Virus record (IMG/VR): IMGVR_UViG_2690316166_000018
Strand: one strand, 5' to 3'
DNA length: 6,113 bases
Source: a virus
Taxonomy: Duplodnaviria > Heunggongvirae > Uroviricota > Caudoviricetes
Of this stretch, positions 1 through 6,113 are shown in pieces. The notes beneath the pieces were generated by a model. That model saw only the letters and a program-made list of their open reading frames with translations, was not told the origin of the DNA and ran no database searches. The position numbers and the translations under genes are program-made. Numbering within the stretch: position 1 is the stretch's first letter; every line of letters starts with the position of its first letter.

Positions 1-101
1 TTCCTTAGAAATAGGCATCCTTGCTGGAACAAAGCGAGCAGCTATATTGACTCTATGTTGTGAGTGTGTTGATCCGTTCTGAGTTAATACATTTAAGTTG
101 C

Positions 102-1024
102 TCACTCTGTTTCTGCTATCCATTCCGGGATTTTTGCCTCAAGCTCAAGCTGCGTGGTAAAGCCGCTGTTATCAATGGTGTGCTCGGCTTTTGCAATAAT
201 CCAGTCCTGATTATCAATCTCGCTTTTAAATCCTGTTACCGTGCCATGCATTTCGGGGTAGAGTTCTGCACGTCCATGCGCCAGTGTGATGGAGAATGAT
301 GCGGCTCCGCGTTGTAGCTGCTGCCACTTTGCCGCCGCTGCACGTCTTGCTGCCTGCTCGTTCTGATAAGTTTTGCGTAACACAAACACGTTGCCTTCCG
401 CACCTTCCATATAGTCGCCTTCCCGGCTGCTGCTTTTCTCCTTTTTTGGTTTTGACGGTTTGCGGCGTTTCACGCTGACTTTTTTCTTTTTCCCGTAATT
501 AAGATCAAGCCAGTAAGCGCGTACCCCCGTATACGCTTCGCGGTCAGCAATGCGGAACTGATGGCGATCGCCGCTGCTGCGTGTGATGGCGAACGAGGGC
601 AACGGCTGGCCCTGTGCGTTCACGCCACCACCGGGCATGATGAATAACAGATTACCGCTTTTTACCGTGGTGATTGCGCCCAGCATTTCCGCCATGCGCG
701 TAAGGAAGGACATGTCGCTTTCTTCGGTCTGGTCGGCGTGGTCGATTTCGATATCCATCAGCATTTCGCTGATTTGCGGTTTCAGACCATACCGATGAGC
801 GATGGCGGATACCACACGCTCAACGGTCACATCATGCCAGGACACCTCACGTTTAACGTTAAATTCAGCCCGAAAATCTGCGCTTCTGGCTGAAACAGTC
901 AGCCTGTCCGGCGGTCCTTCGTGAGCGATTTCATCAACAATGTAAGTGCCTTTTTCTGTCAGCGGTTCTCCCTTCCAGCCAATGAGAACCGTCAGGCGCG
1001 CGCCCCGTGGCGGTAGCTGCAACT
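102..1024 (-). CDS. D: Phage late control gene D protein (gpD-like baseplate hub / tail protein D), 5'-partial because the N-terminus is masked
   Basis: Minus-strand ORF with TGA stop (complement of 102-104). The 306 visible codons end in ...HTIDNSGFTTQLELEAKIPEWIAETE and contain ...GARLTVLIGWKGEPLTEKG...SWHD...GVRAYW..., which I recognise as the P2 gpD family from memory. The frame stays open up to the mask edge at 1024 (the M in the ORF track is a TTG read as a start), so the true start lies inside 1025-1488. If full length is 350-390 aa like P2 gpD, the start is roughly 1180-1280. Confidence 0.82.
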
Positions 1025-1423
1025 NNNNNNNNNNNNNNNNNNNNNNNNNNNNNNNNNNNNNNNNNNNNNNNNNNNNNNNNNNNNNNNNNNNNNNNNNNNN
1101 NNNNNNNNNNNNNNNNNNNNNNNNNNNNNNNNNNNNNNNNNNNNNNNNNNNNNNNNNNNNNNNNNNNNNNNNNNNNNNNNNNNNNNNNNNNNNNNNNNNN
1201 NNNNNNNNNNNNNNNNNNNNNNNNNNNNNNNNNNNNNNNNNNNNNNNNNNNNNNNNNNNNNNNNNNNNNNNNNNNNNNNNNNNNNNNNNNNNNNNNNNNN
1301 NNNNNNNNNNNNNNNNNNNNNNNNNNNNNNNNNNNNNNNNNNNNNNNNNNNNNNNNNNNNNNNNNNNNNNNNNNNNNNNNNNNNNNNNNNNNNNNNNNNN
1401 NNNNNNNNNNNNNNNNNNNNNNN

Positions 1424-2720
1424 NNNNNNNNNNNNNNNNNNNNNNNNNNNNNNNNNNNNNNNNNNNNNNNNNNNNNNNNNNNNNNNNNTGTTGATTCCAG
1501 CGTTATCGGTATCGTGGCAACGGCGGATGATGCGGACGCGGAGCTGTTCCCGCTGAACAANNNNNNNNNNNNNNNNNNNNNNNNNNNNNNNNNNNNNNNN
1601 NNNNNNNNNNNNNNNNNNNNNNNNNNNNNNNNNNNNNNNNNNNNNNNNNNNNNNNNNNNNNNNNNNNNNNNNNNNNNNNNNNNNNNNNNNNNNNNNNNNN
1701 NNNNNNNNNNNNNNNNNNNNNNNNNNNNNNNNNNNNNNNNNNNNNNNNNNNNNNNNNNNNNNNNNNNNNNNNNNNNNNNNNNNNNNNNNNNNNNNNNNNN
1801 NNNNNNNNNNNNNNNNNNNNNNNNNNNNNNNNNNNNNNNNNNNNNNNNNNNNNNNNNNNNNNNNNNNNNNNNNNNNNNNNNNNNNNNNNNNNNNNNNNNN
1901 NNNNNNNNNNNNNNNNNNNNNNNNNNNNNNNNNNNNNNNNNNNNNNNNNNNNNNNNNNNNNNNNNNNNNNNNNNNNNNNNNNNNNNNNNNNNNNNNNNNN
2001 NNNNNNNNNNNNNNNNNNNNNNNNNNNNNNNNNNNNNNNNNNNNNNNNNNNNNNNNNNNNNNNNNNNNNNNNNNNNNNNNNNNNNNNNNNNNNNNNNNNN
2101 NNNNNNNNNNNNNNNNNNNNNNNNNNNNNNNNNNNNNNNNNNNNNNNNNNNNNNNNNNNNNNNNNNNNNNNNNNNNNNNNNNNNNNNNNNNNNNNNNNNN
2201 NNNNNNNNNNNNNNNNNNNNNNNNNNNNNNNNNNNNNNNNNNNNNNNNNNNNNNNNNNNNNNNNNNNNNNNNNNNNNNNNNNNNNNNNNNNNNNNNNNNN
2301 NNNNNNNNNNNNNNNNNNNNNNNNNNNNNNNNNNNNNNNNNNNNNNNNNNNNNNNNNNNNNNNNNNNNNNNNNNNNNNNNNNNNNNNNNNNNNNNNNNNN
2401 NNNNNNNNNNNNNNNNNNNNNNNNNNNNNNNNNNNNNNNNNNNNNNNNNNNNNNNNNNNNNNNNNNNNNNNNNNNNNNNNNNNNNNNNNNNNNNNNNNAT
2501 CGGTGCCANNNNNNNNNNNNNNNNNNNNNNNNNNNNNNNNNNNNNNNNNNNNNNNNNNNNNNNNNNNNNNNNNNNNNNNNNNNNNNNNNNNNNNNNNNNN
2601 NNNNNNNNNNNNNNNNNNNNNNNNNNNNNNNNNNNNNNNNNNNNNNNNNNNNNNNNNNNNNNNNNNNNNNNNNNNNNNNNNNNNNNNNNNNNNNNNNNNN
2701 NNNNNNNNNNNNNNNNNNNN
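1424..2720 (+). CDS. FI: Contractile tail sheath protein (P2 FI-like); almost entirely masked, span is an estimate
   Basis: Only 1490-1558 is readable in this frame: VDSSVIGIVATADDADAELFPLN, matching the N-terminal motif of P2-type tail sheath proteins (recalled P2 FI region ...AIVGMVCTASDADAETFPLN...). It lies directly upstream of, and in the same frame class as, the tube gene. Start (~1424) and end (~2620-2730) are extrapolated from a ~396-aa P2 FI and are not observed. Confidence 0.5.
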
Positions 2721-2758
2721 NNNNNNNNNNNNNNNNNNNNNNNNNNNNNNNNNNNNNN

Positions 2759-3259
2759 AAACATCTTCGCTTTTTTACGCTGTTTGTGGATGGTGAAAAC
2801 GAAGTGGGTAAGGTGACGTCCGTCACTCTGCCTAAGCTGACGCGCAAAACCGACAGCTACCGGGGTGGTGGCATGATGGGAGCGGTAAGTATTGATCTCG
2901 GCCTGGATGACTCCGCGCTTGATGCGAGCTTTGTCATGGGGGGCGCAGTTCGTGAGCTGTTCCTTAAGTATGGCGGCACGATTGACGGTACGCTGCTGCG
3001 TTTTGCGGGTGAATACTACACCGACGCTGAAAGCGACCTGTATGAAGTCGAAATGCGCGGACGTGTGACGGAAATTGATATGGGGGAAGCCAAACAGGGC
3101 GAAGCCACATCACACACTTACGCCATTAAAAACACCTACTACAAGCTGAGTGTTAACGATCGCCCGTTGTGGGAGATTGACCTGCTGAACTTCATTTACC
3201 GGAAGGACGGCAGGGACATTGTGCCCGATCGCATCCGTTCCGCGCTCGGGCTTGGCTGA
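2759..3259 (+). CDS. FII: Major tail tube protein (P2 FII-like); first few codons masked
   Basis: Readable from the mask edge at 2759 to TGA at 3257-3259 (166 codons). Contains the conserved tube motif ...VTSVTLPKLTRKTDSYRGGGMMGAVSIDLGLDD...EVEMRGR...EIDMGEAKQGE... and ends ...RIRSALGLG. Position between sheath and gpE fits P2 synteny. True start estimated at about 2738-2750 inside the mask. Confidence 0.85.
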   Translation, partial: KHLRFFTLFVDGENEVGKVTSVTLPKLTRKTDSYRGGGMMGAVSIDLGLDDSALDASFVMGGAVRELFLKYGGTIDGTLLRFAGEYYTDAESDLYEVEMRGRVTEIDMGEAKQGEATSHTYAIKNTYYKLSVNDRPLWEIDLLNFIYRKDGRDIVPDRIRSALGLG

Positions 3260-3271
3260 TAAGTAATATGC

Positions 3272-3292
3272 AGGCGGCGCAGTGCGTCGCCT
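3272..3292 (+). other. RNA stem-loop in the FII-E intergenic spacer (9-bp stem including one G-U pair, 3-nt loop)
   Basis: aggcggcgc (3272-3280) pairs with gcgtcgcct (3284-3292), checked position by position. No downstream U-tract, so not a canonical intrinsic terminator. Confidence 0.35.
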
Positions 3293-3300
3293 CTGACTGA

Positions 3301-3306
3301 AAGGAG
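3301..3306 (+). promoter_or_regulatory. Shine-Dalgarno sequence (AAGGAG) for gpE
   Basis: AAGGAG at 3301-3306, 7 nt upstream of the ATG at 3314. Confidence 0.7.
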
Positions 3307-3313
3307 TTTCCTG

Positions 3314-3679
3314 ATGAAAGAGACGAAAAACATCGATACCGAAAACACGGTCGTTGCTGACACTGTGAAAGAAACCAGTGAGCGTGGCGTAAAACTTACC
3401 CAACCAATTGAGCGAGGCGGCGAAAAAATCACGTATGTGGAGATCACCGGGGCTATTGAGCAGGCTGGATCTCTGCGAGATTTGTCGCTGTCTGATGTGC
3501 TGAATTTGAAAGCGGAATCCATGTTTACGCTGCTGTCACGCGTGACATCACCGCGACTGGATGAAGTGACGATCAAAAAAATGGCATCCCGTGACTTTAT
3601 TCAGTTATGTGTGGTTGCCGTAAATTTTTTGAGCGGTGCGGACTCTGGCGAGAAGAACGAACAGGCGACGGAAGCCTGA
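3314..3679 (+). CDS. E: Tail assembly chaperone gpE (P2 E-like), zero-frame product
   Basis: ATG at 3314 with a strong RBS, 121 codons, TGA at 3677-3679. Sits immediately upstream of the tape measure gene and carries a TTTTTTG slippery heptamer near its 3' end, the arrangement conserved for tail chaperone genes upstream of tape measure genes. Confidence 0.85.
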   Translation: MKETKNIDTENTVVADTVKETSERGVKLTQPIERGGEKITYVEITGAIEQAGSLRDLSLSDVLNLKAESMFTLLSRVTSPRLDEVTIKKMASRDFIQLCVVAVNFLSGADSGEKNEQATEA

Positions 3680-3843
3680 TCACGGTTGTGTGCTTTGAGC
3701 ACATAGAAGACTTTGTGGCGGATATTGCCGCCATTTTTAACTGGTCGCCCGCCGAAATCTTCATGATGACGCCCGGCGAAGTGGTTAGCTGGCGTGAGCG
3801 GGCGGCACTTCGCAGCGGGAATGCAGACAATGAAGACTCTTGA
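3314..3843 (+). CDS. E+E': Tail assembly chaperone gpE+E' fusion made by programmed -1 ribosomal frameshift (join 3314..3631, 3631..3843)
   Basis: Zero-frame codons AAT TTT TTG (3623-3631) contain the heptamer T_TTT_TTG. The -1 frame is open from here and reads ...FFERCGLWREERTGDGSLITVVCFEHIEDFVADIAAIFNWSPAEIFMMTPGEVVSWRERAALRSGNADNEDS to TGA at 3841-3843. Same design as P2 E/E' and lambda G/GT. Confidence 0.75.
3625..3631 (+). promoter_or_regulatory. -1 programmed ribosomal frameshift slippery heptamer TTTTTTG (E to E')
   Basis: Seen directly: tttttt g at 3625-3631, in the X_XXY_YYZ register relative to the gpE frame, with an open -1 frame downstream. Confidence 0.75.
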
Positions 3844-6113
3844 TATCCGGGTCGCTTTCAGCGCCGTTGACAGGCTGACCCGGCCTGCCGAAAACGCCCG
3901 CCGCCTGATGGGGCAGTTTGGTGACTCCATCCAGCGAACGCAGGGGGCGATCAAAAATCTCGAGCGTCAGGCGCGTTCATTTGAGCGCGCCCGTGACGCT
4001 GTCAGTAAAGCGGATGCGGGCATCGTGAAAGCACGACGCCAGCTTAACGCCCTTAATCAGTTACAACGCACGGGTACAGTGCTCAGCGAAAAACAACAAA
4101 AGCTGATGCAGCAGTTAAGCACCCGGCTTGAACGCCTGAATGAATCGCGCACACGGGAAATTCAGAAAATGCGGGAACTTGGCGGAGAGCTGAAACGCCA
4201 CGGCATTTCCCTGACAGGCAGCGATAACACCATCCAGCAGGCCATCAGACGCACCGGACAATACAACAACCAGCTTGAACGCGAACGGCGGGCNNNNNNN
4301 NNNNNNNNNNNNNNNNNNNNNNNNNNNNNNNNNNNNNNNNNNNNNNNNNNNNNNNNNNNNNNNNNNNNNNNNNNNNNNNNNNNNNNNNNNNNNNNNNNNN
4401 NNNNNNNNNNNNNNNNNNNNNNNNNNNNNNNNNNNNNNNNNNNNNNNNNNNNNNNNNNNNNNNNNNNNNNNNNNNNNNNNNNNNNNNNNNNNNNNNNNNN
4501 NNNNNNNNNNNNNNNNNNNNNNNNNNNNNNNNNNNNNNNNNNNNNNNNNNNNNNNNNNNNNNNNNNNNNNNNNNNNNNNNNNNNNNNNNNNNNNNNNNNN
4601 NNNNNNNNNNNNNNNNNNNNNNNNNNNNNNNNNNNNNNNNNNNNNNNNNNNNNNNNNNNNNNNNNNNNNNNNNNNNNNNATGGACCTCGGCGAGACGGCG
4701 GATATTGGTTCCAATATCCTGACGCAGTTCGGCCTCTCTGCTGACCAGATGGACCGGGTCGGTGACACACTTACCGCAGCGTTTACCCGTACCAACACTG
4801 ACCTTCGCGCACTGGGCGAAACCATGAAATATGCAGGTCCGGTGGCGGGTAAGCTGGGAATATCGCTGGAGCAGGCCGCAGCGATGGCGGGCGTGCTGGC
4901 GAAGATGGGTATCAGGGGGAGTGATGCAGGTACAGCGTTGCGTAAAAGCCTGGCCAATCTGTCATCACCGCCAAAGGCAGCGGCAGAAGCACTGAAAGAG
5001 CTGGGGGTGTCAGTTGCTGACGCCAAAGGCAAAATGCGCCCGATGGAGAATGTGCTGGCCGATCTCTATAAAGCCACCCGCAAATACGGGGAGGTTGACC
5101 GGGTATCGTTCTTTAAGGACATTGCCGGAGAAGAGGCTTTCACATCATTTATGGGCCTCGTTGATGCGGCAGGTGACGGCTTCTTAGCCAAACTGAGAAA
5201 AGAACTTGAAGGCGCGCGCGGTGAGGCAGAACGCACGGCAAAGGTTATGGCCAATAACCTTGATGGCAACCTGAAATCACTCGGCAGTGCATGGGAAGGT
5301 CTGCGTATTCGCATCAGTGATCTGGTTGACGGTCCGCTGCGTTCTGTCACGCAGTGGCTCNNNNNNNNNNNNNNNNNNNNNNNNNNNNGCTCACGCGGGT
5401 TGTCTCAAAGGTGACGGCGCTGGCGCAGGCCCACCCGGCACTGACGCGCCAGTTACTGATAGCGGGAGGCGCACTGCTGGCGACAACAGCAACGGTTGGT
5501 TCGTTGTCTCTGGTTATTGGGGTGCTTCACGGGANNNNNNNNNNNNNNNNNNNNNNNNNNNNNNNNNNNNNNNNNNNNNNNNNNNNNNNNNNNNNNNNNN
5601 NNNNNNNNNNNNNNNNNNNNNNNNNNNNNNNNNNNNNNNNNNNNNNNNNNNNNNNNNNNNNNNNNNNNNNNNNNNNNNNNNNNNNNNNNNNNNNNNNNNN
5701 NNNNNNNNNNNNNNNNNNNNNNNNNNNNNNNNNNNNNNNNNNNNNNNNNNNNNNNNNNNNNNNNNNNNNNNNNNNNNNNNNNNNNNNNNNNNNNNNNNNN
5801 NNNNNNNNNNNNNNNNNNNNNNNNNNNNNNNNNNNNNNNNNNNNNNNNNNNNNNNNNNNNNNNNNNNNNNNNNNNNNNNNNNNNNNNNNNNNNNNNNNNN
5901 NNNNNNNNNNNNNNNNNNNNNNNNNNNNNNNNNNNNNNNNNNNNNNNNNNNNNNNNNNNNNNNNNNNNNNNNNNNNNNNNNNNNNNNNNNNNNNNNNNNN
6001 NNNNNNNNNNNNNNNNNNNNNNNNNNNNNNNNNNNNNNNNNNNNNNNNTCTGACACCTGCAAAAATGCTACTGGATACGCTGGCGTGGATACTTGAAAAA
6101 CTTGGCGTCCTTC
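3821..6113 (+). CDS. T: Tail tape measure protein (P2 T-like), interrupted by three masked spans and 3'-partial at the window end
   Basis: N-terminal segment (frame of ATG 3821; alternatives ATG 3830 or GTG 3794) is Arg/Gln/Glu/Leu-rich and coiled-coil-like (MQTMKTLDIRVAFSAVDRL...QLNALNQLQRTG...). Central segment 4680-5360 (...ADIGSNILTQFGL...ALGETMKYAGPVAGKLGISLEQAAAMAGVLAKMGIRGSDAGTALRKSLANL...) matches the conserved tape measure core region as I recall it. 5390-5535 encodes a hydrophobic segment (LLIAGGALLATTATVGSLSLVIGVLHG). 6050-6113 is open in the same frame. The start overlaps the end of E'. Confidence 0.85.

Follow-up and report, generated by a model that had tools for sequence, protein, structure and literature searches.

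Genes of the locus

The stretch of DNA that was analyzed (the window; 6,113 nucleotides of IMG/VR record IMGVR_UViG_2690316166_000018, Caudoviricetes) carries tail genes of the P2 type in two units that point away from each other: gene D on the minus strand, and FI, FII, E, E′ and T on the plus strand. Several parts of the window are masked by runs of N, and positions that lie under a mask were transferred from identical assemblies, of which L003 serves as the reference. The features are as follows.

102..1211, minus strand: gpD-type gene for the predicted baseplate hub (369 aa in the identical assemblies; PF05954); its stop codon is at 102–104, and its start is masked and falls at ~1211 (L003 4092) if the left anchor is used for counting
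1212..1420, no strand: divergent D-FI control region (157 bp in the identical assemblies; fully masked in the window)
1270..1343, no strand: interval containing the 22-bp Ogr-type dyad GTTGTCGCCGTGGCGGGAGAAT (L003 4151..4172)
1421..2747, plus strand: FI, tail sheath gene (394 aa; PF04984, PF17482, PF22671; mapped from the identical assemblies)
2747..3259, plus strand: FII, tail tube gene (170 aa; PF04985, 157 bits; L003 5434..5946)
3314..3843, plus strand: open reading frames of the tail assembly chaperones E (3314..3679) and E+E′ (PF06528 on the E′ part)
3830..6113, plus strand: T, tape measure gene (PF10145, 152 bits; 935 aa in the identical assemblies)

FI is unmasked in the window only at 1489–1560 and 2499–2508, and the first of these islands encodes residues 23–46 of the 394-aa P2 FI-type sheath protein. 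Within E, a −1 slippery heptamer, T_TTT_TTG, can be read at 3625–3631, and the E′ frame stays open as far as 3843. T exceeds the right end of the window (L003 6517..9324) and is directly followed, beyond that end, by U on the same strand (PF06995; L003 9337..9825).

The minus-strand open reading frame that ends at position 102 matches the Pfam family Phage_GPD (PF05954) with 62.9 bits over its visible 306 aa, the gathering cut-off of the family being 30.1 bits. The full-length 369-aa protein, taken from the identical assemblies, shares 51% identity with P2 gpD and is collinear with it from end to end, with many invariant columns. An intact D of this length with the PF05954 domain is called in L003–L006, L008 and L010. 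From this homology, the product of D is predicted to form the central hub of the tail baseplate.

Identical assemblies and masked stretches

The E protein, which is fully visible in the window, was used for an exact-protein look-up that returned nine NCBI assemblies. Seven of them (L003–L006 and L008–L010) match every unmasked piece of the window with 100% identity and are also mutually identical over the whole span; L007 differs from these at only two positions, one of them in an unmasked piece. Comparison of the N-runs with the sequence that they replace gave 464 versus 412 nucleotides for the D-FI mask, and 1198 versus 1056, 386 versus 367, 28 versus −4, and 514 versus 436 for the others. 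Either the masking did not preserve length, or the true source holds hidden insertions. Because every N-run is longer than the sequence it replaced, coordinates under the masks are approximate in window numbering. This applies to the D-FI spacer in particular, which is masked in the window by an N-run 52 nucleotides longer than the real sequence, and the content of which is taken here from the identical assemblies.

In L003, D occupies 2983..4092 on the minus strand, the spacer 157 bp (4093..4249), and FI 4250..5434 on the plus strand. The order in the identical assemblies begins on the left with ihfA, hok (minus), an ogr-family gene (minus; PF04606), a gene for a 500-aa PIN_4 protein (minus) and D (minus); it continues to the right of the spacer with FI, FII, E, E′, T and U (all plus), a DNA invertase gene and fibre gene segments. 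D is intact, and the tail genes are contiguous, each in one copy. The element adjoins ihfA, together with ogr and hok, in what resembles an attachment-site position. The PIN_4 cargo protein had no match in PADLOC or NCBIfam. Some assemblies carry IS elements close by, both in the fibre region and in the stretch from the PIN gene to D.

Several points of the original prediction, which was made from the partly masked letters, can be settled with these assemblies. It had read the minus-strand frame as a gpD homologue diverging from FI, which the domain match and the alignment to P2 gpD bear out; the distance between the two starts, estimated at 150–250 bp, is 157 bp. U is absent between D and FI, as had been argued, and sits after T, where it had been proposed to look for it; likewise, a PF04606 ogr-family gene is present downstream of D, on the left. 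A second copy of D, which it had been proposed to look for downstream of T, was not seen in the identical assemblies, where each tail gene occurs once.

Distribution of the divergent layout

The original prediction regarded the divergent position of D as non-canonical and possibly rearranged synteny. The comparison with other genomes shows otherwise. In the record of phage P88 (NC_026014), the closest relative, D lies on the plus strand and FI to U on the minus strand, which is the layout of the source. A search with the junction itself (the D N-terminus, the spacer and the FI N-terminus) matched Enterobacter phage phiT5282H, Serratia phage KSP20 and many Klebsiella phages, and the layout recurs in ST16-OXA48phi5.4 and 3LV2017. 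In all, it is found in four ICTV genera of Peduoviridae (Xuanwuvirus, Novemvirus, Reipivirus and Reginaelenavirus) and in Serratia phage KSP20.

The same picture emerges from bacterial genomes. Among species-representative genomes, the best 80 of 423 D matches, a sample biased toward the query D, comprise 58 divergent loci and 22 loci with the canonical U-then-D order. The 58 divergent loci of these best 80 span ~25 genera of Enterobacterales, including Salmonella, Edwardsiella, Serratia, Erwinia, Enterobacter, Pantoea, Klebsiella, Kosakonia, Brenneria, Pectobacterium, Xenorhabdus, Photorhabdus, Providencia, Morganella, Hafnia and Yersinia, among others. Of 5426 complete E. coli genomes, 1355 (~25%) have the P88-type D-FI junction and 1571 the P2-type U-D junction, which makes the two layouts similarly frequent in this species.

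Since many characterized P2-like phages share it, the divergent layout is ordinary: it is the normal gene order of a large and well-sampled P2-like branch, neither a rearrangement nor a remnant, and it is already on display in public annotated phage genomes. Taken as a whole, the best explanation of the window, in which we have high confidence, is that it represents the tail module of a P88-like (Xuanwuvirus-type) prophage of the P2 family in its usual arrangement. P2 alone is insufficient as a synteny reference for such elements, and about half of the P2-like prophages in E. coli would look rearranged if they were judged by it.

The D-FI spacer

Late promoters of P2 depend on Ogr and carry a dyad of the TGT-N12-ACA type (PMC3931495). 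Ogr-type dyads had been proposed as something to look for in the D-FI spacer on both strands; the spacer does hold such a site, but a single one rather than one per strand, and its core reads TGT-N12-AGA, one base off the consensus. The complete dyad, GTTGTCGCCGTGGCGGGAGAAT, has the form GTTGT-N12-AGAAT, with AGAAT as the FI-proximal half, and falls at 1270–1291 in window numbering when counted from the left anchor or at 1322–1343 when counted from the right. The spacer of P88 has GTTCT-N12-ACAAC at the equivalent place, and the motif also occurs in the divergent region between terminase and scaffold genes of that phage. Spacers of other relatives carry GTTST-N12-ASAAC or the exact TGT-N12-ACA, and the three sites of P2 itself are off consensus as well.

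A whole-genome scan of P88 for the exact TGT-N12-ACA found two occurrences against eight expected, neither at a late operon, and this query was replaced by the motif common to both divergent late regions of P88. The latter, GTTST-N12-ASAAC, has three occurrences in P88, where chance would give 0.08, and two of these occurrences are in the pair of divergent late intergenic regions; the region upstream of the R/S/V block of P88 (18979–19115) gave no dyad in the scan. Dyads with no more than one mismatch number 41 in the spacers of 51 divergent loci, over a background of 0.04 per 340 nt, a count made over phylogenetically related and hence non-independent loci, and no such dyad was found upstream of D in any of 20 canonical loci. 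The remaining weaker cases, 11 of the 51, have only dyads with two or three mismatches, several of which retain the exact TGT-N12-ACA core. Across loci the half-sites are conserved and the N12 is variable, and the D-proximal half-site, ACAAC, is conserved best.

Blocks resembling −10 elements are conserved to both sides of the dyad. Toward FI, a GAT.AT block at +33..+38 from the dyad end reads GATGAT in the source; toward D, a TG-extended A..AT block at +30..+38, conserved across many genera, reads TGCGACCAT in the source (TGcGACCAT). In P2, the annotated starts, used here as calibration, lie 45 bp from the dyad ends at pP and pO, and 46–48 bp at pF. Because the −10-like hexamers of both sides fall at +33..+38, the spacing that P2 shows, starts are predicted ~45 bp from each dyad end, near L003 4103–4106 for D (minus strand) and 4217–4220 for FI (plus strand). 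The predicted leader of D is short (~11–14 nt), and D has its own ribosome-binding site. Neither a sigma-70 consensus promoter in the spacer nor a terminator after D was found by the respective scans. The ogr-family gene downstream of D encodes an 86-aa product with the PF04606 domain, which shares 38% identity with P2 Ogr and aligns with it at the four cysteines.

Together, these features suggest that D is transcribed from a late promoter of its own. A single Ogr-type dyad, ~55 bp upstream of two opposed starts, would switch on D as well as the FI operon, and the trigger would be production of the prophage’s own ogr-family zinc-finger activator. That D has its own late promoter, with one activator site common to it and the FI promoter, is a prediction from sequence that we consider likely. 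The earlier suggestion of a distinct P2-like lineage with D under its own promoter fits these data, the promoter being the predicted part of it.

A different reading accepts the layout as the norm of the lineage but has the dyad serve FI only, with D expressed from a separate, weaker activator site or from an activator-independent promoter. The dyad would, after all, descend from the FI promoter site (P2 pF), GACCAT, the hexamer on the D side, makes a poor −10, and the leader of D would be very short. However, it is the D-proximal half-site that is the best-conserved part of the dyad, the TG-extended −10-like block is fixed at +30..+38 on the D side in many genera, and the spacer offers no sigma-70 consensus site. 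One site serving two promoters also has precedents, in pP/pO of P2 and in PP′/PO′ of Smp131 (PMC3931495). We regard an FI-only dyad as unlikely, and the shared site as the better reading.

Nature of the element and origin of the layout

An R-type tailocin, a headless tail bacteriocin, with D under separate control might present a similar aspect. Xenorhabdus and Photorhabdus, genera known for P2-like tailocins, have divergent loci too, and the window shows tail genes only. Yet P88 is a complete phage, the record of which holds capsid and other head genes, terminase, lysis, replication, integrase, baseplate and fibre genes; P88 itself was induced as a phage from E. coli K88 (PMC5285337). The O111 prophage, another near-identical relative, extends into baseplate and virion morphogenesis genes, and the element of the source sits in an attachment-site-like position beside ihfA, with ogr and hok. 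We consider a tailocin very improbable. Still less credible is that the source genome alone underwent a recent inversion, was misassembled or joins two decayed tail-module remnants: the layout departs from the textbook P2 order and IS elements lie near the locus in some assemblies, but 1355 complete E. coli genomes, isolated phages from four genera and 58 species-level loci (among the best 80 of 423) have the identical junction, and each tail gene is single and intact, with U after T.

Of the explanations first put forward for the position of D, a junction between two tail-module remnants found no support, the tail genes being single, contiguous and in the order of the inducible phage P88. An inversion separating D from the FI-U block fits as an old event fixed in the lineage, a recent rearrangement being very improbable.

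The preferred reading, a normal P88-like tail module, leads to the question of how this order arose. In an NJ tree of the D proteins from the best 80 of 423 matches (unrooted, without bootstrap), one split parts the divergent from the canonical loci. The distant Pseudomonas phage phiCTX, taken as the outgroup, is canonical, and so is P2; therefore, one old inversion is the simplest account. The FI-FII-E-E′-T-U block would have undergone a single ancient inversion relative to D and to the genes for baseplate and fibres, with one breakpoint just upstream of the activator site of the FI late promoter and the other at the U/D boundary. Such an inversion would be the reason why D diverges from FI over a spacer of ~157 bp, why U converges on the fibre genes, and why the accessory-gene slot has stayed beside the fibre genes, between them and U.

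This slot also bears on the accessory cargo locus (Z/fun in P2), for which no room had been seen upstream of FI. It is not upstream of FI, but it is present between U and the fibre genes, and also between D and ogr. The contents vary: between U and the fibre genes, P88 and the source carry an invertase, O111:H- 11128 a serine O-acetyltransferase, and ST16-OXA48phi5.4 DUF262 together with a hypothetical gene.

We lean toward the view that the spacer is a bidirectional late promoter built on one Ogr-type site, and that it was created as the ancient FI-U inversion brought the pF dyad beside D. If so, a dyad that is symmetric and works both ways would have given D late control at once upon inversion, and this immediate control would explain why the inversion was tolerated and became fixed across many genera of Enterobacterales. 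The single D-FI dyad would then be a tidy and testable case of a symmetric activator site that permits the inversion of an operon fragment without loss of regulation. An inversion in the P88-type lineage is unmentioned in the available text of the P88 paper, in a 2026 survey of P2-like viruses and in the Serratia PP4 paper, and a limited keyword search found nothing specific; a limited literature search likewise found no paper stating a shared bidirectional late promoter for this lineage. Only these two elements, the single-inversion rationale and the shared promoter, are new, and mildly so.

Comparison with known systems

Phage P88: From D through the spacer to FI, FII and E, the source and P88 share 97–98% nucleotide identity (97.1% in D, 98.3% across the D-FI junction and 98.3% from FII through E to the start of T). 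The order and orientation, D diverging from FI FII E E′ T U, are the same, and the dyad is at the equivalent place in the spacer. The two differ in the tape measure gene, which is only 88–91% identical, in a 3-codon indel in D, and in what follows D: hok stands directly after D in P88, whereas the source has the gene for the 500-aa PIN_4 protein, then ogr, then hok.

Other divergent phages: In phiT5282H (Novemvirus), ST16-OXA48phi5.4 (Reipivirus), 3LV2017 (Reginaelenavirus) and KSP20, D diverges from FI-FII-E-T-U as in the source, and ogr is downstream of D where the record covers the region. In the KSP20 record (AB452988), orf2 is already annotated as gpD-like (minus strand) and orf3 as gpFI-like (plus strand). 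The D proteins of these four phages are 70–78% identical to that of the source, and the cargo genes are different ones. Annotated D-FI spacers in the three complete phages, phiT5282H, ST16-OXA48phi5.4 and 3LV2017, range from 28 to 153 bp, some of the annotated starts being possibly over-extended.

The F operon of P2: The source shares with P2 the gene families, the E/E′ −1 frameshift heptamer, ogr downstream of D, and, by prediction, late promoters of the activator-dyad kind. In P2, D comes last in the series FI FII E E′ T U D, overlapping the end of U and followed by ogr; a single pF serves all seven genes, and the Z/fun cargo is upstream of pF. In the source, by contrast, FI-U is inverted relative to D, D has a predicted promoter of its own, and the cargo is between U and the fibre genes.

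The pP/pO region of P2: The closest parallel to the proposed arrangement of the spacer is the region in which a single annotated activator site of P2 serves two opposed promoters, with starts at 3016 and 3127, each 45 bp from the end of the 22-bp dyad. As in the D-FI spacer, one dyad is placed midway between opposed late units, with −10 regions (−10-like hexamers in the spacer) and starts (predicted ones in the spacer) equidistant from it. The genes served are other ones, and the half-site that reads AGAAT or AGAAC in D-FI spacers is CCATC in P2. The P2 site was mapped experimentally, whereas the D-FI site is a predicted one.

Sequence elements around the predicted late promoters
The D-FI spacers compared among relatives of this P88-like prophage (L017-L074), anchored on the predicted Ogr-type dyad, carry a GC-rich CGCGCGCG block at +19..+28 from each dyad end, ahead of the -10-like hexamer. 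The block is conserved on the D side in many genera and, in the form GCGTG, on the FI side; the predicted terminase-side promoter of Escherichia phage P88 also has a GC-rich CGCGCGCG block.

Within the tape measure gene T, ~730 bp upstream of U, the late-promoter dyad (GTTCT-N12-ACAAC) occurs in perfect form for a third time; this copy is common to P88, the E. coli O111:H- 11128 prophage and the source-type assemblies, which are identical to all unmasked pieces of the window.

Positions of the T-internal dyad
Source type (L003): 8581-8602, corresponding to window about 6023-6044 (masked)
P88: 28823-28844
O111:H- 11128 (L001): 17710-17731

It was not found in the T genes of phiT5282H, ST16-OXA48phi5.4 and 3LV2017. 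This copy may be either a chance occurrence or an internal promoter.

Accessory genes flanking the tail module
In most relatives ogr directly follows D, whereas here the two are separated by an inserted gene for a 500-aa protein with a PIN_4 domain.

L003 1255-2757, minus strand: PIN_4 gene, immediately to the left of window position 1

Window positions 1-101 are part of the spacer upstream of this gene, which has a sigma-70-like promoter of its own (TTGATA-16-TATTAT, L003 2820 to 2793). Two source-type assemblies (L006 and L009) have IS3-family elements inserted between the PIN_4 gene and D. The protein had no match in PADLOC or NCBIfam; lysogenic conversion or defence is a candidate role for this cargo gene.

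At the other end of the module, relatives differ in the cargo carried between U and the fibre genes. The DNA invertase that the source type has in this slot is followed, in several of those assemblies, by an IS3-family element.

Cargo in the U-fibre slot
L001 19111-19683 (O111:H- 11128): serine O-acetyltransferase
L002 26977-27564 and L003 9861-10448 (P88 and source type): DNA invertase with inverted fibre segments
L014 7809-9712 (Klebsiella phage ST16-OXA48phi5.4): DUF262 and a hypothetical protein

Masking, annotation and assembly
In assemblies with 100% identity to every unmasked piece, the sequence corresponding to each N-run of the window is shorter than the run itself.

Excess length of N-runs relative to identical assemblies
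1025-1488: +52
1561-2758: +142
4294-4679: +19
5361-5388: +32
5535-6048: +78

The tetramer GCTC, single-copy in the real sequence, stands at both 5357-5360 and 5389-5392, on either side of 28 N. Either masking did not keep length, or the source hides insertions.

In O111:H- 11128, RefSeq gives D (L001 12102-12955) as a small pseudogene and a protein of 266 aa labelled ‘VgrG/Pvc8 family’, despite an uninterrupted reading frame of 369 codons. The same short call recurs in L007, near-identical to the window, and in L009. These calls look like artefacts of start-site choice or annotation. Separately, a contig recorded under a Gram-positive genus (L018, NZ_JBQPOM010000071.1, ‘Vagococcus sp. WN89Y’) encodes D and FI 97-98% identical to those of the E. 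coli prophage and has the same D-FI dyad, probably through assembly contamination or misassignment.

The E/E' frameshift
Near the end of E, at window 3625-3631, lies the -1 frameshift heptamer T_TTT_TTG; the -1 frame (E', PF06528) remains open as far as 3843, overlapping the beginning of T at 3830. The heptamer is of the same type as that of P2.
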